DNA of 61,637 bases, counting the filler, from Sluysia triapertura (taxonomy: Eukaryota): assembly GCA_046118255.1 (NCBI GenBank). It is 5 parts of 5 records of this genome, joined end to end, with 100 filler letters (N's around TTAATTAATTAA, not from the genome) between each part and the next. Parts side by side here need not be neighbours in the genome. Positions count along the whole stretch, not along the records: positions 35,994 to 49,250 come from JBJNIA010049561.1; 4 more parts are not named here. One strand, 5' to 3'. The notes beneath the pieces were generated by a model that was given only the letters and a program-made list of their open reading frames with translations, did not search any database and was not told where the DNA came from. Position 1 is the stretch's first letter, and each line of letters begins with the position of its first letter. Shown piece after piece: positions 10,852-49,350 of the stretch. The position numbers were made by a program, and so were the translations under genes.

Positions 10852-10951
10852 NNNNNNNNNNNNNNNNNNNNNNNNNNNNNNNNNNNNNNNNNNNNTTAAT
10901 TAATTAANNNNNNNNNNNNNNNNNNNNNNNNNNNNNNNNNNNNNNNNNNNN
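10852..10951. other. artificial contig linker (N44-TTAATTAATTAA-N44)
   Basis: Identical 100-nt N block with an all-frame stop cassette. Confidence 0.98.
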
Positions 10952-11237: not shown

Positions 11238-12423
11238 ATGATTAATATATCTAGCAAAGGCGACGAATTGTTAGAAACTCGTTTAAGTAATATTTTAGTA
11301 TTGTGATAAAAGTATATGATATAGATGAGGTTACAAATCCTTTAAATCCTACTTTTAATGAACAAGCAGCAATTGCGTTTTGTGAACAAGTTATTAAGGA
11401 AGTTGAAGGTCATCAAGTTGCTGTTCGTTTGTTGGCACATAAAGTGCAGTCTCCACAAGAAAAAGAAGCTCTTTATGCATTTAATGTACTTTTTAAAATT
11501 TTAATTGTTAAATTTAGTTAATTGATGAATGCGTCCGCCGATGTGGTTCAAAATTTCATCAAGAAATAGGAAAATTTAGATTTTTAAATGAACTTATTAA
11601 GATAATTTCTCCAAAAGTATGTTTGTTTAAATTTCACATTATGTCTTTACAGTATTTAGCTCGTAGTATGTCATCATCAGTTAAAATAAGGTGCACAGAA
11701 TGCCTTTATTGTTTATATAAAGGTTTACCTCATGAAACGAAAATTGCTGAGGCTTATAATATGTTGAAAAAACAAAAAATAATCCAGAAAGATCCAACAT
11801 ATATGGACAGTAAAGTAATAACTTTTTCAAGCATTTATAATTCAAATAGATATTTAGAGCCGATTGCAATGTTAAAAAACCTAATAGTATATTTGATAGT
11901 AGTAAAGAATCAGAAGTTAGTTTAATTACGTTGAATAATTAATTAAATTGTGGATTATGTAATAAGTGTACTTAATTATTACTTTTTAACATTTTATCTA
12001 GAAGTTATCGCGATTACTGAAAAGCAGAAACCCTGATGATTTGAGAGAAGCAAATCGTATAATTAAGAGTATCGTGCACGAAGTTTGTTATTTTAATTAC
12101 AAAAATCTACTTTTTCGAAATTATACTGCAATAACTTTGTAATATTAATTGAATATTTTGTCACTAATATGTCAAAAAATATTGTTACAATATTTAATAC
12201 AATAAAACTGTGTAGTATTTTTATTTTGAATTAAGAATATTTTATAATAATAAATTATTGGTCATTAAACAAAATTTTATTTTAGGATAATCAACGAATG
12301 GAGATGTTATCAAAACGTGCTCTAGAAATCGAAACAATGAAAAATAATATAAAATTGCTAAGTGAAATGTTAGGATGTTACAATGTGAATGAAACCACGA
12401 CTGATGATATGGATATTATGAAG
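11238..12423 (+). CDS. GGA: GGA (ADP-ribosylation factor-binding, Golgi-localised gamma-ear adaptor), exons 1-7: VHS domain and start of GAT domain
   Basis: Exons 11238-11286, 11325-11485, 11518-11616, 11653-11814, 11850-11915, 12002-12082 and 12286-12423 are all GT-AG and stay in frame. Spliced product includes LETRLNEVTNPLN, AVRLLAHKVQSPQEKEAL, CGSKFHQEIGKFRFLNELIKIISPKY, ETKIAEAYNMLKKQ, KLSRLLKSRNPDDLREANRIIKSIVHED and NNIKLLSEML. Confidence 0.95.
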
Positions 12424-15499: not shown

Positions 15500-17394
15500 T
15501 GATAGTAATTTAATACAGTATAACTGAACATTTAGTTATTGTTACATATTTGTTATTGCAATAAAGAAATAAGATAATGCTTTACACTATTTATACCACG
15601 ACTTTGTATATACCGATTTCGACCAAAAAGTGCCTTTGCGCTTGAAGTTGTCGCCGTATTTATTCTTTTATGGCGTTCTTTATACTCAACTGTGAGTTCT
15701 AACTGGAATAAAGTATTCCGATTAAATCGAGAATATTGTGCCCAGGTCATCTACGGGACTTACATTTTACACTATATTTTCTAGCCATTGGGTCAGTTAC
15801 AACGGCCACAAATTTGTGCTATTATAAAATTTAATTGTTTCTGGAAAACGTTTTATTGCTATTTTCCACTTGTACTTATTAAAAGTACTTTTTTGTTTGG
15901 CTTACTTTTATAAATTGTTAAAGTTGAACTAATAGATGCGTAAAGTTGCATTATGAAGCGTTTCATTTTTGCAGATTTTTGAAGTTCTGTAGTAACGTTC
16001 CTGACCCTGCCAGTAAATTGCTCATGAGCTTCAAAACCAGAGACTCACCTAATGAAATTGATACCGGTATTTTGTCTTTTCCCAAACATGGGAACCCGTT
16101 GATAATATGTTTATCCTTTACATCAGATGTCCGCCAAAATTTTATGTCACAACCGGTTTATTCGGTATGTATTGGATGAACCTACATCTAGCTTTAGTCG
16201 GAAGAGCTTTTCGTCAACTGCTTTAAATGAATGAATGCCATACTTTTGATACCAAAACATTTATTTTCTCTCAATTTGTCTTTTCTCGTCTTTTTCATCA
16301 ACCTGCAAGAATTTTAGTATTTTCATAAAGGAATTGGCTCATGGTATTCGAAAAAAATGAAGGATCCCATTTCTTATTCCATAAAAGCGATGCGTGGACA
16401 TTTTTTTGATCACGTAGACCACGTACGTACAAAAGAGCTATAAATGCTTCTAATTTATCTCTAGGTAATTTATTTTCCCAAACTCTTCGTGCTTCCACTT
16501 CCGTAGATTTTATAATGTATTCCGTAATGTGGTTGTCAAATAGTAAATAAAATGCTGTGCTTACCTTCCTCTTCATAACATTTCTTTCGGCATGTCCAGT
16601 TGTACCAGATATACCTTTGAAAATAATGTGAAAAGCTGGTCTCCCAGGAGAGGAACCTGTTTCGATTTTCTTCCAAACTGTACCGTCTAGAGCAATTTCA
16701 ATATTCTCTTGCTCATTGTTTTCTTCATTGTCTTCAGAATCTGTCAACAACCTATTTCTTTTTCGTCTTCTACTTGCATTCAAAGTATCTTCCTCTTCAG
16801 TGTTTGAAAATTATTTTCACATTTGCTATCGCTATCGATTTCATGGACACTTTCGGAAAATTCAGCCAACTCATCTTCTCTTTCAGATTCTGAACTTTCA
16901 TCAATCTGAGAGCATTCTTCATTTATATTACTTATATTACTCCTTCATTTATGAGATTCTGGACATCCTTAGGATTAGTTATAAACTAACGAAATAATTT
17001 AAAATAAAATATTATACATTTCTATTTACACACCTGAAATGGCAATTTCAACTAATTTTACGACTGCGAAGGAAATACAAAAACTCCAACACTATTACTT
17101 CAATGATCTGCAGTAAAATGGAACATTGCAAATAGCAACCGAATATAAAAATTATAACGGTAATTTCTCTATCTTCTATTACAATTGAAATGGTGTTGCC
17201 AAATATTAAGTGTAAATTAACTTAAAATTTGAAAATGTTGTAAAATCGTACTAGAAATAGCTATGCCAGCTGAAGTAAAATTTAAATTTAATAAATTTAA
17301 CAATTATTATACGAGAAGTCAAAACATGAATTGAGAAAAAATGGTTAAACTTAGAAAATAATTTCAAAATAAAATGTTAAAGGTAGAAATAGTG
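15500..17394 (-). mobile_element. piggyBac element remnant inside GGA intron 7
   Basis: ORF 16298-16783 has an acidic N-terminus and FYLLFD...LEAFIALLYVRG...LW...FSNTMS. Downstream are VDEKLF (about 16215), IINGFPCLGKD (about 16090) and NVTT (about 15995). The terminus ...gtagaaatagtg|TTAA lies at 17394-17398. The left boundary is approximate. Confidence 0.88.
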
Positions 17395-23361: not shown

Positions 23362-23461
23362 NNNNNNNNNNNNNNNNNNNNNNNNNNNNNNNNNNNNNNN
23401 NNNNNTTAATTAATTAANNNNNNNNNNNNNNNNNNNNNNNNNNNNNNNNNNNNNNNNNNNN
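23362..23461. other. artificial contig linker
   Basis: N44-TTAATTAATTAA-N44. Confidence 0.98.
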
Positions 23462-31850: not shown

Positions 31851-32129
31851 TCATCCTAGATCTAAAGATACATACCTGATATACAAAATCATGGTAGAAA
31901 TAATGTTAATATCTTTTTTCAGCATTCAATGAAACTATTACTCAAAAGACCTTAAAATAAATCAGTGTTACCACATTAAAGACAGCATGTGATGAAAACC
32001 GTATAGCCTGAATTCCCGCATATTTTGCTGAAATTATATAAATTAAAGGTAAATTATATAAAATATACGCTTGATTATATAAAATATACCAACTGATTTC
32101 GGACCCTATATATGTGATGCTGAAATACA

Positions 32130-34750
32130 ATACAAACGAAATCCTAACCTTAGCAACCTGACATCCGAGCCACCCGGCAACTCATCAGATCAACAGATCA
32201 ACCCATCTTCGAAAATCAAATCCAATCCCTGTACAACAAACTCCAAAATACTAGTGACATCCCGATAGATGAAATATTCCAATCCATATGTGATGCTATC
32301 CAACGGATTAAGCCACCCAAATTCCCAAACATTATGGCACAACACAAAAGAAGCTTGCAACGCGAAACGCTACAACCCAGATTGGACAAGATCTTCACTG
32401 AAAACCAAGCCAAAGCATTCCATATAATTACTGGAATAGCCAACTCTCCTACCAATCCCACACCAGAGGAAATCTGCCAGTACTTCAGTAGTGGAATAGT
32501 ACCACCGTTCGACCCACTTAAAGTCACTCACTTTCCAACATTCATGGACTATAGACTAGTGATCCCATCCTGGAGATTTAGATTCTCACCACTCTCAAAT
32601 ACTGCAAGCGCTCATCACCAGGTCACAACCAAATAATGTTCGAGAATTTAAAGGATGCCGATCCCACTGGTCAACCAAAAGGTCCAGACTGCTTGGAAGA
32701 ACTACAACACTGTATTGATAATCAAACCCAATAAATATGACTTGGCACAAGGCGTCGATTCATAGAAGCCTATAGCTATAGTGGACTGCAGTTATAGAGT
32801 CTTTGCCAAGATCTTGAATGACCGTTTACTGGCATGAGTCAAAAGTGGCAACCTCAAAGTACACACCAAGCTGCTCTTCTCCAATCAGATTGATACACCG
32901 AGCACAACTTCCAACTCCACTCACTTAGAGAAATAGTGGAGTCGATAAATCACAGGAAATCGCGCAAAATCGAATTACACATCGTCTTACTCGACTTGGT
33001 TCGGTGCGGCACAATCTGATATGGTATACACTTTCAAGTATGGAACTCCAACAGCAAACCCTGAACATCCTGAAGGACCTATACCAAGACAACAGTACCA
33101 CCTACAAATGCAATGGCATTATAACCAAACCCGTACCGATCATGTATGGAGTAAAACAAGGATATCCATTATCCATGACGCTATCTGATCAACCAGTTCA
33201 CGGATGATGACTACATCAAAATAACTGATGACCTAAAATTTCTTCCATACCTGGAATATGTTGACGACACAGCCCTCATCGTCACTACTTTCGACAGACT
33301 ACAACAAATTGTCAACGGAGTTGTCCAAAATGCGAAATCAGCCAACCTCATATTCCGGCCTACAAAATGCTTCTACGACAACATGCCCGGCTCGAGATAT
33401 TCACTACTAATCGAAAATACTCCGATTCCCTGTGTCACTATTCTGTGACTATAAACGGCAAAGTTTATTAATACACCGAACTAGTCTCGAAATCAAAACT
33501 GAGTGCCCGGAATAAGTTCCTCATATACAGAAACTTTGTGCAGTCCAGACTTTCGTTCCACCTAAGGAACCTGAATATCAATGTACAATCCCTCAGCAAT
33601 CCCCATCCTAAAAGCACATCCAAAGATATAAGAACTGCTGAAAATGAACAGGAGTTTCTTTCTTGCACACAGGAACCATGGAGGACTCAGCCTAACCTGA
33701 GCATATGACGACTACGTGTGTCAGAACGTGATGTGCGTTCAGACTATTCAATAGTCATAAACCGATAATACGCACACTGACACATCGGAAAGTTGTACAG
33801 ATAGCCAACAGCCGGATGAATGGAGATTGTGTGGATCTGACCCAAGCTCTCGCATGGCTCAATGGAAGTCCTACGGATAAGCGCACTCGGTTGCAAACCC
33901 GAACTTCTACCAAGAACTTGGAACAAAAGTATCGGATCAGTGCTTCATTCATCTGCTCTGACAACTACAATGTCTAACAATCCTTGAAGTCGGACATACT
34001 TGGCGACAACCCAATCATTATTAGCCACTACCAAAGAACAAAGTCGGAAAATACCTACACGAGCTGATCAGCACTTGCAATAACAATATCTGGAAGTCTA
34101 AAGTGCCAGGGTATCTATGTCGACTCTCTCATGCAGTGCCTACTCTCCAACAAATCCCTGTCACTTGAACTGGATGTTTAGTCTTAGTCTTAATTTCAGT
34201 CCACAGAACATGCGTCTCTATGTGCCAGTATCACGTCGATGGTGTGGCTTCGAATCTGAATCCCTTCTACACGTGCTCTGTCTATGTTCTCACACAAGCA
34301 CAGCCAGAACAGTCCGGCACAACAAAATCCTTAACTACCTAGTGGACAATATGACCGATAATCTCGGTCATCAAGGATTCGCATGCACCAATTATCGGTG
34401 AGTCTCGACGACCTGACATAGAGGCCCGCGGTACTTCCTCATCGCAACTGTTCTTGATTGATGCCAAAACTCCATGGACCTGAAGAAAAATTTCGAAATA
34501 GCCCGAACCACAAATATTGCGAAATATGCTGATCTCCAGGGCAAACTGCAGAAACAACTGAAGTGCAAGGTGTCTCTGGATACATTCGTCGTTGGAGCGT
34601 TTGGTTCATGGGATCCCTAGAATGACAAGCTTCTCAAGGCGCTTGGCTTCCACAAGACCGAAATCAAGACCCTAGTACGACTAGCTGTGAAGTCCTCAAA
34701 TAACGCATGCTGCGACCATGTCCTACAAGGTCCTTAAAAAGAGAAAGAAA
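32130..34750 (+). mobile_element. decayed non-LTR retrotransposon with RT and restriction-like endonuclease (NeSL/Utopia/R5-type)
   Basis: GC-richer island. RT motifs: KPI...YRVFAKILNDRL (about 32770-32830), GVKQGYPLS (about 33150-33175), YVDD (33257). Then a degenerate CCHC (RWCGFESESLLHVLCLC), RHN (34315), RRPDI (about 34407), LIDAKTP and FVVGAFGSWDP*ND (34585-34626), followed by an A/G-rich tail. Many stops and frameshifts. Confidence 0.9.
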
Positions 34751-35893: not shown

Positions 35894-35993
35894 NNNNNNN
35901 NNNNNNNNNNNNNNNNNNNNNNNNNNNNNNNNNNNNNTTAATTAATTAANNNNNNNNNNNNNNNNNNNNNNNNNNNNNNNNNNNNNNNNNNNN
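35894..35993. other. artificial contig linker
   Basis: N44-TTAATTAATTAA-N44. Confidence 0.98.
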
Positions 35994-37319: not shown

Positions 37320-38141
37320 ATGGGCTCTTCCAAATCTAAAGAATTGGTAAGAGATCAACCAAATGTAAGTATTTCTGAATGTCCAGTACAGCACGTAAAT
37401 AATTCATCATCCGCTGGCCAAAGTCAAGCATCTCATAAAATAAGTTTATCTTGTCCAGTTGGAGAACAAATTGATCTATCAAACATGATGCCTCCTGCTA
37501 ATCAAAATCCAAGCCCAGATCAACCTTTTTTATTGTCAACAGATAGGGTTGTATCTTCAATTCCGAAATTTGGCGATAAAGAAGATGAAAACTGGGTATA
37601 TCCGTCTGCTCAAATGTTTTGGAATGCGATGATTCGTAAAGGTTGGCGTTGGAAAGATGATGATATTAAAGTCGAAGACATGGATAATATAATAAAAATA
37701 CATAATGTTAACAATGAATTGGCTTGGCGTGAAGTACTTTTATGGGAAAGCATGCATTTTGACGAATGTAAAACTCCAAAGTTAAAAAGATTTGGTGGTA
37801 AAGCAAAAGATTATTCTCCACGTGCAAGATACCGACATTTAATAGGTTATGAATATCCTTTTGATAGACATGATTGGGTTGTTGATAGGTGCGGAAAAGA
37901 AATTCGATATGTGATTGACTACTACGATAGTGGTAATGTCGATAAGAATTTTCAGTTTGCATTGCTTGATGTACGTCCAGCAATTGATTCGTTACAGTCA
38001 ATAATTGATCGCCTTAAAGTTACTTATTGGAGATATACGAATACTAATCCAAATTTACCTTCAATTGAAAAATATTTCAAGTCAAGTAAAGAATCAAGTA
38101 TATCTAATTCAAGTAAAATGGAACAAGTTAAAAATTCATAA
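37320..38141 (+). CDS. HCCS: holocytochrome c-type synthase (cytochrome c heme lyase), single exon
   Basis: 273-aa ORF with an MGSSKSK N-terminus, two CPV heme-regulatory motifs, [66 protein letters not shown] and LDVRPA. Confidence 0.97.
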
Positions 38142-42900: not shown

Positions 42901-45423
42901 CTTCAGAAAAATGATCCATATCATAATTTTTTTATGGTTAAGCATTAGATGTCAAATGATAACATTAAAGAAATTTATCTTTGTCATATTTACCTAACCT
43001 TAATATCACTGTAATATATTGGTTACGTTAAAGAAATGTTTAGCTTGTCGTCCATTTAAAAATAACTTTAGTGTGGGAAATGATGTTTTATTTTTTTTTA
43101 ATTTTTTATGAATTTTTATTTGATTTTCCATTATTTATTATGTTAATTATTAATTTGTTGACTTGGTTATTAAAATTTTTATCAACACTCTTAAAAAACA
43201 TTACTTAGGTGCTAATTGCAGTTAGACAATTCATTATTATTCTTAAAATTTAAATTGTAGATAAGAAATTATGAAATCAAATTTTATTTCTGTTAGAAAT
43301 AGACAAAAGGAGGGATTATAATTCAATCGTACACAGGTCACTTTTGGTCAATGTTGAATAAAAATCTTAGTAACTGAGATAAATTTGGTAACAGTAGCCT
43401 TTATTACAGAACGTAATTTCCACGATAGTTGTCAGAACAGTGTCCAATCTACTTAGGTCTTAGATAGTGCCGCCGAGGGTCGATACAATTATACATACTA
43501 GATGTTTGAGCGATGAACAGCCTACACCGCCTACACTGAATACGTATGCGTAACGACTTCGACCATATCGTCAACTCGTGATGTTTAGACGAAGCATATG
43601 ATATTATTTCTATTTGTGTTAATATTACGTTGTTTGAAGGGTAATTAATTATTAAAAAATAAAACTTAAAATTATTTACAACACAAACACTCTTAAGATT
43701 AAAACTACAAATAAGAAAAGACAACTGTGCATATTCTTGTATGCAAACTAATTATATAATACGTTAAACAATTTTACTAAAAAAGAAACAGTACTTCACA
43801 ATACATTGACTAAACTAATAATCGGATCGTCAAATATAAAATTGGAAATATTGTTCGTATAGTGAACAACCTGAACATCGAACCGCAGTAACAAAATATC
43901 TAGATCTGACATAGTATGCCATGCCTGTCTGATGATAGTTTCATTTAATTAAATTATCTGTAGTTATCATACTTCTCTTGCATTTTAAATCACCATCTGC
44001 AAAATCTTTTTCTATGGCATCTGGTTTATGATATTTCAAATGGTTCGTCATGCCAACAATCTAAAACATTCGGAGCTACTAAATAACAATCATTTTAAAT
44101 GCCGAGCTGACGTCTTTACGTACGCAAACATCGGGATCGTTGTCTTGTAACTCAGGTTTTGGAATCCTCATCTGAAATCTATCTACATTAAATCCAACCA
44201 GATTAGCTCCGGATCGCACATTGTAACATTTTTATTAATTTTTGTACAATTCCAAAAATAATACCAAGGTCAACTTCTATATAGTTTTTGATTCAATGAA
44301 ACAATTTAATGTCTTTAAACAACCTATTTGTATTCTTTAATTTTTCTTTTTTTAATTCCTTGGCTTAGAAGGAATTGTATAAAATATAATATAAATATAA
44401 TATAATATAAAATGTAACATAATAAAATATAATACAAAATATAATATTGTCAAATATACATACAATATGAATGGCAAATATGAACATTGATCTGCAAATG
44501 TGGATACAACATATTGATTTATAAATGTAAAATATTCATTTGTTAATACAAATCTATTTGTAAATAACGATAATATTGATTTATATGTAATTTAAATATT
44601 GATTCATTTAAATTATTTTACGGATATTAAATTAACGTTTTAAAGAAGGTAAATTATTTTTAATTATTTTTAAAATCATCTTTATAAAGTAATAAAATAA
44701 TAAATAAATAGTTTGTTTTTTGGGAATATAAAAATTTTTATCTTTTATTTTGTTTTAAATCGTTATTGACCTTCAAGGTCACATGTTTAGTATTTAATAG
44801 AAAATATGTTAAAATCTCAAGCAAAAATACAGAAAACTCATTAATACTGACTTTCTTATATTTTGGCATTAACGTTATCAAAGCTAACCATTGTCTTCTG
44901 ATACCAGAAAAGAATCTCATTATTAAACATCCGTCATTTGTCTTGTCAAATCGTTAGTTTAATTGTTTAGGATATTTTGCAATTTTACCACTAAAATACC
45001 ACTAAAAATCTTTTAAAATATTATAGAGCTACTATTTAATAAAGTAGCTGATTAAAATACTTTTTCAAATATATACATATACCAAGATTATTGTAACAAT
45101 CCTTATAAATTCATTTATTTTATTGTTGTATTTTCATTTTATTATTTAGTAATATAATTTCATACTAATTTGGTGCATTATTATTTAACAACAAATAAAT
45201 TTAAAATTGCTTTGTGGTTCATTTTTAAGAACCAAATTAAAATCTTCTTTAATTAAAAACTTTCATAAATTACTAGAAAAGTTTTGGTTGAAGAAAGTAG
45301 AAACAAATTAATTTCCTTAAATATTAAGATTGTGGAAATCAAAAGCTAGCCCTGACCGGTACGTTGATGGACTCACTACATTTATTTTATCCACAAGCTA
45401 AAGAAAAATCTAGCAGAATAAAC

Positions 45424-45440
45424 TGGTACCCAGGTTGAGG
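45424..45440 (+). promoter_or_regulatory. candidate tRNA primer-binding site
   Basis: TGGTACCCAGGTTGAGG lies about 350 nt upstream of gag and just downstream of a dispersed repeat. It starts with TGG (complement of tRNA CCA). The cognate tRNA was not verified. Confidence 0.45.
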
Positions 45441-45789
45441 AACAGCATACAATAATTAATTGATACTAAATTATAAAAATTCCAAAGTTATATAAGTTTA
45501 AGAAGAATTTAAGAATTTAAGAATACAAGAAAATTTTTAGTTAAGGTATAATTGCAATTTCACTAAAGATATGTTATCTTTGAGTATTATTATATCCAAA
45601 GTTATTAATTAACAGTTTTATAAAGATTATACTTTAAGTAAGTGAGTTTTAAGTAAAAATAGATAAACAAATAGTATTATACAACGATTACAGAACAAAA
45701 TTAAGAAACTATATGGCATTGCATAACGATTTTAAAGAATATAAGGTCAGTTAGCAAAAGAGATACGTCCCATATTAACTTTACCAGAA

Positions 45790-46815
45790 ATGAGCAAATT
45801 TAATGGAGCAGAGGAAGACCTCTGTGATTTCCTTTTTGAATATGAAAGCATTGCCGAAGCAAATGGCTGGAATGAAATTGAGAAAGTTCAAATAATACAA
45901 AACTATTTAACACGAGCAGCAATCCAAATCTATAAGGAAATAAGTAACATTGATAAGAAATCTTGGAATGCATTTGTAAATGCTTTTACCAAGGATACAG
46001 TCCTCGATGATGTGACAAAACATTATTCAGAGAAATTAAATTTAAGACAACAAAAACCAAATGAAACTATATATGAATTCACATCCGCTCTTGTTGCCAG
46101 GACAAAAGTCCCTGAAGATAAAAAAGAATCTACATTATTGGATAAGTTGAAAACTGGCTTTCGTCCGGAATTAAGGACATATGTTACATTAATGGAGAGT
46201 AAACATTTTAAGGAGATAATTAAAAAGCTAAGAAGTATGGAAAGGTCTTATAGTGATGATAGAGATAATATTAATTATGTAAGTGATAATGATGACAAAT
46301 ATAAAAGAGATAAAAGCCCAAAATTCAAAAGAAATAAAGATAATTTTGATAATTATAATTATAGATATACGGATAATTCCTCAAATTATGACGAATATAA
46401 TAATCGAAATAATTCTTCAAATTATAATTGAAATAATTCTTATGATGGATATAATAATAATAGATTTAATGGCCCACGTAGAGGCATCTCAAATAGTTAG
46501 AAGGATAATTCAAACAATTATAGAGGAGATAATAACATAAGTAGAGGATTTCCGAATAGTAGAATAAGTAGTTATGAGAAAAGTCCAGCACCGAGATGGC
46601 CACCTAGTTCTAATTTTAATAAGAATAAGAGTATGAGTCCAATAAGATATGAAAACAATAAGACTCAAACTAATATAGATGGAAAGATAATCTGTGACAA
46701 CTGTAATAAAAAAGGACATTACGCAAGAGATTACAGAAAACTAAGGCAGAATGTGCTTACTCAAGACTTTACTAGAGTAGAGATATCAAAGCCCAAATGG
46801 AAAAGTAAGGTTTAA
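45790..46815 (+). pseudogene. retrotransposon Gag (capsid, Asn-rich linker, degenerate zinc knuckle)
   Basis: ORF 45790-46431 reads KFNG....FLFEYESIAEANGWNE..K...YL...A...W..F..AF...LNLRQQKPNETIYEF...G..PELR. The frame continues through stops to ICDNCNKKGHYARDY (ORF 46633-46815). Confidence 0.88.
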
Positions 46816-47386
46816 TAATGATAATAATAAGAATTATAAGGAAAAAATAAATTGAAATTATAGAAATCCAAAGGATTATAGAAATAACAGAAATGATTAT
46901 GAAAATGAAAACGAATATCAATGAGAAGAAAAGAAATAACAATAGAAGAAAACCAAAAAGAAGAGAAATAAGTAGCGATGAAGAAGATGATAAATACCTT
47001 AAATTAATTACCGACGAGAAAAAGAATGCTATGCTTAGAGAATTTTATATTACTGGCTTGATTGTGATAAAAATAGATTTAAAAATAAACAAGAAGAAAT
47101 CTTTATGAGTTACATGCATATTAGACACCTAGAATTTCAAAAGGATAATCAAAGAAGGACACAACGAGAAAAAGAAGAAAATAGACTAACAATACAACCA
47201 ATTCAGGTTAGAAATACAAAATCAACCAATGGATAAAAGAAATAAAAGAAGTAATTACAAACGACGATAAAAGAAAAATAATTCAAGAATAATCAATAAA
47301 TGGGAAGGTAATGTAAGGAAAATTGAACTAAATAGGAAAAATGACAAAGAGATATATTCAAAGAGATATATAACCCTAAAGATTTA

Positions 47387-47581
47387 ATGAAAATAAGTAT
47401 AATTTTTAATAGTGCTTTGAATATTACGATGGAACTCCCATTAACGTCAATTGTAAAAGATATTATAGAATTACTCGGGTTAAATTATTCAACTATAACT
47501 GATGTTGATTTATATTTTTATGATAGAAAATTATTACCTAATGATTATATAAATGATTACGGTTATCCATCAATGAATTGA
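47387..47581 (+). pseudogene. ubiquitin-like domain ORF within the retroelement
   Basis: MKISIIFNSALNITMELPLTSIVKDIIELLG...DLYFYDRKLLPNDYINDYG follows the ubiquitin pattern MxIxV...ITLEV...V.D....I...RLIFxGKxL...LxDYG. No C-terminal GG. Confidence 0.5.
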
Positions 47582-48060
47582 GACAATTAGGAAGCATCAA
47601 TGATTTCTGCAGTTATTATGTCATACACTCAACCTTCGAACTATTTAAATAAATTAAATGAGCTTATAAAAGATGATAATGATGTTGATTTTGATAGAAC
47701 TCGACTATCACTATTAAAAGAATTAATGGAAGATGATTATAATAATAATTATTATTATATGGATCGTTGTAAAATTATAGACATTACTAATGATAATGAT
47801 GATCTTATTGGAGAAAAAACTGATTACATAGTAGACTTAAATAAAAACCCATATATAGAAACAGAATATAAGGAAACAAATACATTTAAAAGAAAACAGG
47901 TAGATCTGGAAGAAATAAAGATAATGATGAAATAACAATTCCAAATCCAATACATAAATAACCCATTAATTTAAGAAAATGTACTTATAAAAATCTAAAA
48001 GAAACACTAAATACCAGAAGCATAATTTATGCATTATTATCTACTTTCGATAATTATAAA

Positions 48061-48370
48061 ACATTATTACCTGAATTAAACGAATATAAAAGGACATTAT
48101 CAAAAATAATTAAAAAGATGGAAAAAAATATAAAAATACGAATATAAGTGATTAATACAATGATAATAATTAATACAAACCTATTATAACCAAACAAGTT
48201 AACACAGGAATTAATAAAGAAAAACTTAAAATTATAAAAGCTTATATAATATTTCAATGTAATAAAGTTGATTAATAACTAATGAAATGATATATAAAGT
48301 TATAAATTTTACTGAAAAGAAACTTGGTGCTTGGATAAAGGAACAAGGAGGATGGAAAAATATTATTAAA
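48061..48370 (+). pseudogene. Bcl-2-family-like segment (clear BH2; putative degenerate BH3 and BH1)
   Basis: MIYKVINFTEKKLGAWIKEQGGWKNII (48287-48367) matches BH2 (Bax LDFLRERLLGWIQDQGGW). Upstream segments RTLSKIIKKMEKN and NTGINKEKLKII lie in other frames at Bcl-2-like spacing. Confidence 0.55.
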
Positions 48371-48459
48371 GAAAAAGAAAAGAATAGATTCAACGAACCA
48401 CTTAATATGATAACAAAGTTAATTAATAATAAAGAAATATTGGCATTATTTTGAATTCA

Positions 48460-49030
48460 TCTAGAAAATCCTATTAAACTTTTGACTGCAGTCAACCCCA
48501 AATTTTATTGGACACATTTTTTTATTGGGCACTGAAGATTGTCCAGAATCAAGACCAAACAGAGTCAAGATAAAATACATGAAAATACTTAATGTTTATC
48601 AATAAAGGAATTTAGTTAAAACACTGGTAAAGGGATGTTTAGTTAAAAGATCTGTAGTTATTTAGTATTGTGGTCATCACAGTCACTCATCGATAATAGG
48701 TATATAATCTATTATATCCATTTAAGATATCTCCTAATAATTGTCGTGACGCTTTTGAAACTGGATGTATAAGTTTAAATAAAGGGGACAAATTAGGAAC
48801 AACGAGAAAATAATTTATAATGTAAGGTCATTAGGTAACGTACTTTTGAAAGTGGGAAGAAAAATTTATCACGATGTAGTGGCTCAAGAAACATGTGTAT
48901 TAAGTTTAAGATCTTTTAATGAAAGTTTTGATTTCGAGAAAGGAAGTATGATGTCACGACCATTCTGTAGAAGTGACCAAACAAGTTGTGATACTGGTAA
49001 ATCTATACTAATATACGAATTTGAAAATTT
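48460..49030 (+). pseudogene. env-like fusion glycoprotein related to chuvirus (Jingchuvirales) G, N-terminal part, decayed
   Basis: Across frameshifts: FDCSQP...EDCP...LNVYQ...GCLVKRSVVI*YCGHHSHSS...ISPNNCRDAFETGCISL...YHDVVAQ...FCRSDQTSCDTGKSILIY. The order and spacing match chuvirus G (YDC...C...Q...C...R...YCGxHSHxS...C...ETG...VVVQ...C.....C). Confidence 0.75.
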
Positions 49031-49250
49031 TCAGTACCCATTAATTTTTTTCAAACAAATTAAATTTAATTTAATTTCGGGATTTCATCAAAATGAATAT
49101 GAATTAGCTGTAGAAGAATTTATTGTTGTTATTATTATTAAATGATTTAAATGCATAAAATCTTATAAAAGCCTCTTTTACACGATCTGTTCTTTATCTT
49201 ATGCTTTTCTTACATATATAGTGAAATAAAAGAAAAGACGCAAATGTTGT

Positions 49251-49350
49251 NNNNNNNNNNNNNNNNNNNNNNNNNNNNNNNNNNNNNNNNNNNNTTAATT
49301 AATTAANNNNNNNNNNNNNNNNNNNNNNNNNNNNNNNNNNNNNNNNNNNN
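49251..49350. other. artificial contig linker
   Basis: N44-TTAATTAATTAA-N44. Confidence 0.98.

Follow-up and report, generated by a model that had tools for sequence, protein, structure and literature searches.

The DNA analyzed here, referred to below as the window, is a stretch of 61,637 nucleotides (filler included) from Sluysia triapertura, assembly GCA_046118255.1, with a GC content of 24% over its whole length. The window consists of five separate contigs, set apart by spacers at 10852-10951, 23362-23461, 35894-35993 and 49251-49350, each with a 12-base stop linker between two blocks of 44 N; sequences that face each other across a spacer are without linkage. The story of this window is written at the right end of the contig at 35994-49250 (JBJNIA010049561.1), where about 3.5 kb of a retroelement are visible on the + strand: a gag gene, a decayed linker, the likely remnants of two accessory domains, and the front part of a broken envelope gene. 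The terminal segment of the contig, 49146..49250 (no strand assigned), leads directly into the N spacer that starts at 49251, and the rest of env, with any pol, lies beyond the window. The Pfam scan of the other frames took in 105 of the 276 open frames.

The gag region spans 45745..46812 (+ strand) and is composed of a gypsy-type capsid, an Asn/Arg-rich linker and a CCHC knuckle. Its likely start is the ATG at 45790, and the linker contains two in-frame stops, at 46429 and 46498. The motifs that the original prediction had quoted for this Gag were all found: FxG...ANGW as FNG at 45799 and ANGW at 45859, QxPxE as QKPNE at 46051, and the single knuckle at 46693-46734, which is degenerate because a Tyr replaces its last Cys (zf-CCHC, E 0.002). 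Retrotrans_gag (PF03732) is present in all three aligned Gags, with E 0.0075 for that of the window, and PF03564 (DUF1759) is absent from the same three at E<=1. The Gag profile matches dArc2 (E 6.7e-9) and, more faintly, PEG10 (0.057), both of which are gypsy-derived capsids. BEL/Pao elements are instead marked by a DUF1759-type Gag and by Peptidase_A17 or DUF1758 in pol, and neither of these last two domains is listed for any tabulated relative. In an Atlas search with the Gag, 23 of the 30 matches belong to Retrotrans_gag/Ty3_capsid sets; the top cluster is mixed: 22% of its members carry DUF1759 and 12% Retrotrans_gag. A BEL/Pao classification of the Gag had been set beforehand as the outcome that counts against the prediction; with its PF03732 and dArc2 matches and no DUF1759, the upstream Gag is, as judged from its sequence, of the Ty3/gypsy type and not of the BEL/Pao type. 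A word-indexed Gag search gave no match among 1267 longer candidates, and one weak Gag locus (L001, E 5e-5) was dropped; none of 21 relatives matched it.

The env fragment, the broken N-terminal part of a class III protein of the chuvirus-like/HSV gB type, is found at 48481..49145 (+ strand). A three-frame translation of this strand places FDC at 48481-48489 in frame 1; EDC, VYQ, GCLVKR and YCGHHSHSS within 48534-48692 in frame 3; NNCRDAFETG at 48736-48765 in frame 1; and VVAQ at 48876-48887, with PFCRSDQTSC at 48960-48989, again in frame 3. There are at least three frame switches (order 1, 3, 1, 3) between the two reading frames used, in-frame stops occur at 48603, 48663 and 48705, and the last open frame closes at 49143-49145. 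Every motif of the cysteine scaffold previously reported for this locus is accordingly real, on the + strand and in two frames, with the correction that the Cys just past VVAQ is not a family-conserved column. The extent given before, 48460..49030, does contain env but stops short of its end: the homology reaches about 49097, which corresponds to about position 248 of the 633-position family profile.

Several lines of evidence speak to the nature of this fragment. When queried as one reading with stops as X, it matches PF24664 (Monjiviricetes_fusion) at E 6e-6 and 24.9 bits, under the curated cut-off of 27. A phmmer search of 1.84 billion representatives yielded 25 matches with E<=1e-3, of which 11 reach E<=1e-10 and the best has E 1.3e-21 and 33% identity; PF24664 is present in 20 of the 25, and among the five without it are two unrelated proteins. 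A profile built from 16 env relatives scores 118 bits on the window, compared with at most 1.8 in 50 shuffles, and aligns over positions 28-248 of 633. In the first nine family-conserved Cys columns, the window has Cys in seven, one is unplaced and one is Tyr. The predicted identity as a chuvirus-type fusogen is borne out by these matches, and 48481-49097 represents, on sequence grounds, the front part, now broken, of a chuvirus-like class III env gene. Just ahead of it, at 48400..48480 (+ strand), the translations contain a hydrophobic stretch that, by likeness to the relatives, is probably a decayed internal signal sequence.

How close is this env to those of viruses? The fragment is 22-33% identical to retroelement-borne envs over about 200 residues, and 35% identical to P0123 over 156 columns. 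When the predicted model of P0123 (mean pLDDT 55.5) was submitted to Foldseek, the top match was the G protein of Tacheng tick virus 4 (E 4.8e-29, 21% identity), followed by other chu-like, xinmo-like and qin-like G proteins; against the PDB, it matched herpes HSV gB (E 3.9e-10). A gB-like fold was found in this way for the relative P0123 only, in a predicted model, and the identity of P0123 to any viral G is 21% at most. The window env is hence nearer to retroelement envs than P0123 is to viral G, which fits inheritance inside an old element lineage. In a tree of 20 env relatives, which had no viral outgroup, the window sits on a long branch (1.4) in an unresolved group (94/95) with P0122, P0123, P0124, P0149 and RT-bearing forms, and in no starred group.

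The gag-to-env distance is about 900 codons, within the 568-1310 residues of relatives with a whole Gag. The segment between the two genes opens with a charged, frameshifted and decayed linker to which no domain was assigned (46813..47386, + strand), and continues with a likely ubiquitin-like (Ubl) remnant at 47387..47563 (+ strand), detected with a profile of segments from the relatives. This profile scores 9.5 bits there and none of 100 shuffles of the gag-env interval reaches that score; its eight segments were hand-picked. An earlier profile of six segments, searched over the whole window, had given a weak result (iE 0.91), after which two segments were added and the search was confined to the gag-env interval. 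The remnant has no sequence match in Pfam or PDB, and the corresponding segment of one relative has a faint match to Pfam ubiquitin (E 0.031). A low-confidence model (pLDDT 55) has the strand-strand-helix-strand order; in fold searches nothing was significant (lowest Foldseek E 1.1, highest Z 2.8), and their weak rows include several beta-grasp proteins. Because of the iE of the six-segment profile and of sequence and fold searches without a significant match, the Ubl call is weaker than the Bcl-2 call that follows; the segment is likely a ubiquitin-like remnant, and it is the weakest part of the domain order.

A likely Bcl-2-like remnant comes next, at 48097..48376 (+ strand), in pieces distributed over three frames. 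It carries the BH2-type motif WIKEQGGW at 48332-48355 and matches Pfam Bcl-2 at E 0.002; 24 of its 26 PDB matches at E<=10 belong to the Bcl-2 family, the best with E 0.062. At 48281-48376, the Bcl-2-like profile built from six relatives reaches 12.7 bits, a value that none of 100 shuffles attains, and the upstream pieces in other frames are collinear, none being significant singly. The original prediction had noted neither of these two remnants, nor that the window is made up of separate contigs. Directly upstream of each Ubl, the relatives P0126, P0127, P0138, P0149, P0150 and P0151 have a conserved helical domain about 80 residues long, with two copies in P0149; judged by eye, it may resemble the N-terminal domain of TFIIS. 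This domain was not found in the window.

Pol was found neither between gag and env nor anywhere else in the window, where tblastn with 21 relatives gave gag and env matches only, and the window has no LTR pair, target-site duplication or long direct repeat; for this reason, the class of the element rests on Gag and on the relatives. A TGG-initial stretch at 45424-45440, about 350 bases ahead of the gag start, is a possible primer-binding site.

The relatives are informative in this regard. The closest are single polyproteins with the order Gag-(Ubl)-(Bcl-2)-Env-protease-RT-RNase H-integrase, and most of these long proteins come from ENA or JGI assemblies; one that is filed under a bacterial MAG is surely a contaminant. 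Gag and env of the window both match the same polyproteins, P0126 and P0131, and tblastn with the Gags of these two env-bearing proteins finds the window at E 1e-13 and 1e-14, respectively. Gag precedes env in one ORF in 5 of the 17 tabulated relatives (two of these five built the Gag profile), and a Bcl-2-like domain precedes env in 6 of the 17, the same six that built the Bcl-2-like profile. Independent Pfam Bcl-2 matches directly ahead of env were obtained for P0123 (E 0.00096), P0149 (E 0.0015), P0126 (E 0.055) and P0122 (E 0.2). All four relatives that reach RT (P0124, P0129, P0147 and P0150) place env ahead of PR-RT-RH-IN and contain YIDD and GPY/F, the latter being a mark of gypsy-type integrases (PMC12440569). 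The order in P0149 is Gag, two knuckles, two Ubl units, Bcl-2-like domain, Env, proteases and ankyrin; ankyrin repeats also occur in P0147. Related loci were found neither in viral contigs (P0123) nor in genome contigs (P0124) nor in metagenomes (P0152). Some relatives, namely P0147, P0127, P0129 and P0150, have tandem aspartic protease domains after env, some of them past the integrase, and P0147 (4844 residues) has seven stretches of PF13975.

Another point concerns the abundance of the element. One public run (X1) contains the stretch; no RNA data set is listed for it, which has no bearing on expression. Of the contigs of X1, 6358 map to 44500-49250, the interval that the mapping took in: 375 at >=99% identity, 897 at 95-99%, 2285 at 90-95% and 2801 below 90%, so that 5086 of the 6358 are less than 95% alike. 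Of the 22 bins between 45613 and 49110, 21 have a summed depth ranging from thousands to tens of thousands, with a drop to about 2,200 in the last one, and the upstream exact match is a single contig with a depth of 13.6; these depths are not copy numbers, and X1 is possibly the source sample itself. Read cautiously, the gag-to-env stretch is a large, diverged repeat family. The segment 44500-45600 is moderately repeated in X1 (summed depth 136-922) and may be a leader or an LTR.

As for the host, the contig of the element carries an intronless host gene for holocytochrome c synthase (HCCS) at 37320..38141 (+ strand; PF01265, E 1.2e-57). Its best matches include trematodes (ranks 1, 6 and 15), all animals score 54-68%, and the identity to the nearest entry of the protein collection is about 66% at most; with no closer relative of its HCCS at hand, sampling around the host appears to be poor. 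In a FastTree tree of all 121 rows, this HCCS is sister to flatworms (0.949); in IQ-TREE trees of 45 and of 46 of these rows, its place near flatworms and a leech is not resolved (supports of 82/55 and 89/80 in the 46-row tree). The AU test rejects a placement with hexapods plus branchiopods (p 0.003), and keeps flatworms (p 0.49), all arthropods (p 0.17), spiders (0.13) and molluscs (0.15). Judged by this one gene, the host is probably a flatworm, which is a best guess; it is not an insect. The expectation of a non-arthropod host stands in part: hexapods plus branchiopods are rejected, but arthropods as a whole are not.

The obvious term of comparison is the planarian Burro/GYPSM1 family of giant gypsy-like LTR retrotransposons, described with thousands of copies and with Gag-CCHC, Ubi/SUMO-like, BCL2, Env, PR and RT in one ORF; the Burro env lies in frame between gag and pol and matches fusion glycoproteins of arthropod and fish mononegaviruses (PMC6431247). 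Burro and the window have in common the order of Gag with CCHC, Ubl, BCL2-like domain and Env, together with very high repetition, and the decay of the window copy has a parallel in the Dugesia japonica Burro copies, described with stops and frameshifts (PMC6431247). There are differences too. The window has one degenerate knuckle where Burro has two or three, and no MATH, BIR or Smc piece was detected between its gag and env. Burro exceeds 30 kb and includes extra MATH, BIR and ankyrin domains; of the element in the window, about 3.5 kb are visible, and ankyrin occurs in the relatives P0147 and P0149. Finally, Burro hosts are planarian, and the host of the window is, by its HCCS, probably a flatworm.

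The second comparison is offered by Smed_errantivirus_1-6 (Platyhelminthes C1a, HSV/gB-type), elements with a gypsy Gag, a gB-type env and the order GAG-ENV-POL, so that Gag and env follow each other as in the window (PMC13524379). These elements are intact and present in 1-215 copies each, whereas the window copy is decayed and cut off. By eye, the Schmidtea rows share with the window the cysteine spacing, VYQ, CGHHSHS, PFC and C-x-TG-x-S-I-L. In the sheet of 229 gB-type sequences of that study, HSHS occurs once, VYQE five times and TGES three times, in Schmidtea rows only, and PFC occurs in two Schmidtea rows and one tunicate row; these searches used four-letter words and included 124 insect rows, and alignment gaps can hide a motif. 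The counterparts in the window are CGHHSHSS, VYQ, PFC and DTGKSILIY. The nematode, bryozoan, branchiopod and cnidarian rows inspected by eye do not follow the spacing of the window. The likeness of the window to Burro and to Smed_errantivirus has been judged by domain order, by eye and by motif search. In word searches, the main text of PMC13524379 gives no match to Burro, Bcl-2 or ubiquitin, and its supplements give none to Burro. Its table includes nine flatworm elements, six of them from Schmidtea.

More distant systems share the fusogen. Anakin and other mosquito BEL/Pao elements with chuvirus G (PMC7642597, PMC10084718) have an env of the same family, with the broad cysteine scaffold of the window; their rows differ in having neither PFC nor TG-x-S-I-L, and their backbone is BEL/Pao in mosquito hosts. 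The class III fold of Jingchuvirales/Monjiviricetes G and of herpesvirus gB is common to the P0123 model, but the window env belongs to a retroelement and has neither a nucleoprotein nor an RdRp in its vicinity. Troyka was rejected as a relative, since its available description has no env and a different knuckle (PMC12440569).

Taken together, the locus is best read as a copy, decayed and cut off, of a Ty3/gypsy-type element that is highly repeated and likely belongs to the planarian Burro/GYPSM1 kind, with a pol predicted past the contig end (probability about 0.85). It works like a Burro-type gypsy element with a gB/chuvirus-like env and very likely is one. Points that weigh against this reading are the weak Ubl call, the helical domain missed in the window, the mixed top Atlas cluster of the Gag, the IQ-TREE placement of the host and the long branch of the window env.

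Other explanations deserve to be weighed against this one. The original prediction held that the combination would imply an independent capture of the chuvirus glycoprotein or a wider host range, but gypsy elements with such an env from non-arthropod hosts have already been published (PMC13524379, PMC6431247). The available text of PMC10084718, which describes the gypsy links of this env as fragmentary only, is probably the state of knowledge behind that claim. More recently, the chuvirus-env-like glycoprotein of mosquito BEL/Pao elements has also been found beside gypsy pol in 114 arthropod elements, and gB-type env is widespread in animals, with the order GAG-ENV-POL in Nematoda, Bryozoa and Platyhelminthes (PMC13524379). 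A fresh capture by a gypsy element in this very host would suit the PF24664 match, the chuvirus and chu-like G proteins that top the structural matches of P0123, and the long branch of the window in the env tree; it is nevertheless very unlikely, given that the nearest sequences are env domains in retroelement polyproteins with the same neighbors, that P0123 does not exceed 21% identity to viral G, and that the window motifs are common to the envs of Schmidtea elements. A BEL/Pao element of the Anakin type, or a viral fragment that happens to lie beside an unrelated gag, is extremely unlikely: the Gag matches PF03732, dArc2 and PEG10 and not DUF1759, Gag and env match the same polyproteins, the entire 45.6-49.1 kb stretch is repeated, and the relatives carry a gypsy-type pol, all of which prevails over the 22% of DUF1759 members in the top Atlas cluster and the broad Cys scaffold of mosquito BEL envs.

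Two further alternatives keep the gypsy-type Gag. The element might be a gypsy GAG-ENV-POL of the same broad kind, but from a non-flatworm host or from outside the Burro lineage proper; the groups that the AU test keeps (arthropods, spiders and molluscs), the loose IQ-TREE position near a leech and flatworms and the lack of any HCCS match above about 66% leave this a small probability. Against it are the rejection of hexapods plus branchiopods (p 0.003) with flatworms kept (p 0.49), the trematodes among the best HCCS matches, the Schmidtea-type env motifs, and the order of Ubl and Bcl-2, which is that of Burro. A pol-less, helper-dependent gag-Ubl-Bcl-2-env family that borrows its polymerase would explain why the window is without pol, why env homology stops at about 49097 and why the depth is down to about 2,200 in the final bin. 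Such a family is highly improbable: the contig ends only 150 bases past the env homology, and in every relative of sufficient length, env is followed by protease or pol. Moreover, 21 X1 contigs continue with other sequence from about 49085, which fits one copy cut or rearranged.

If the Burro-type reading is right, an intact copy would encode one long polyprotein, to be cut by its own aspartic proteases and by signal peptidase into Gag, accessory domains and enzymes. An internal signal ahead of env would route Env to the secretory pathway, where it would form a gB-like trimer, and particles could then fuse with neighboring cells. The Ubl and Bcl-2-like domains would act on ubiquitin and host cell-death pathways, the latter domain keeping the producing cell alive. 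The window copy is incapable of any of these steps because of the frameshifts and stops in gag, linker and env.

What does this locus add? That gypsy elements carry a chuvirus-like env outside arthropods was already known, as was the domain order, and no new capture event is opened; its value is that of one more divergent, high-copy member, which could widen the host range of Burro-like elements. It might also represent a separate, massively amplified Burro-like lineage of flatworms outside Dugesiidae, in which the gag-Ubl-Bcl-2-env head is compact and env is divergent, a suggestion that we regard as tentative and rather less probable than its opposite. If true, the env-plus-Bcl-2 polyprotein would date far back in flatworm history, and there would be a second system for studying whether a retrotransposon spreads by blocking the death of host cells. 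The locus touches two questions: Is Env fusogenic? Is the Bcl-2-like domain anti-apoptotic? The literature search found no test of either, and an anti-apoptotic role of the Burro BCL2 has been called worth testing (PMC6431247). Intact Schmidtea copies fit such functional tests better than the broken copy of the window; BURRO1 is expressed once PIWI silencing is lost (PMC8532177).

Other features were noted in the window. A GC-richer island extends over 32000-34600 (42% GC in 32001-34000) and includes a reverse transcriptase fragment at 33179-33445 (E 3e-4), on a contig other than that of the element; the fragment has no match to the pol of the relatives and is probably, for this reason, part of a decayed non-LTR element. 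Two decayed remnants of piggyBac-like transposases (PF13843) lie at 1752-2676 and 16301-16810, both on the - strand, and a GGA-type adaptor gene of the host, with VHS and N-GAT exons, is found at 11291-12139 on the + strand.
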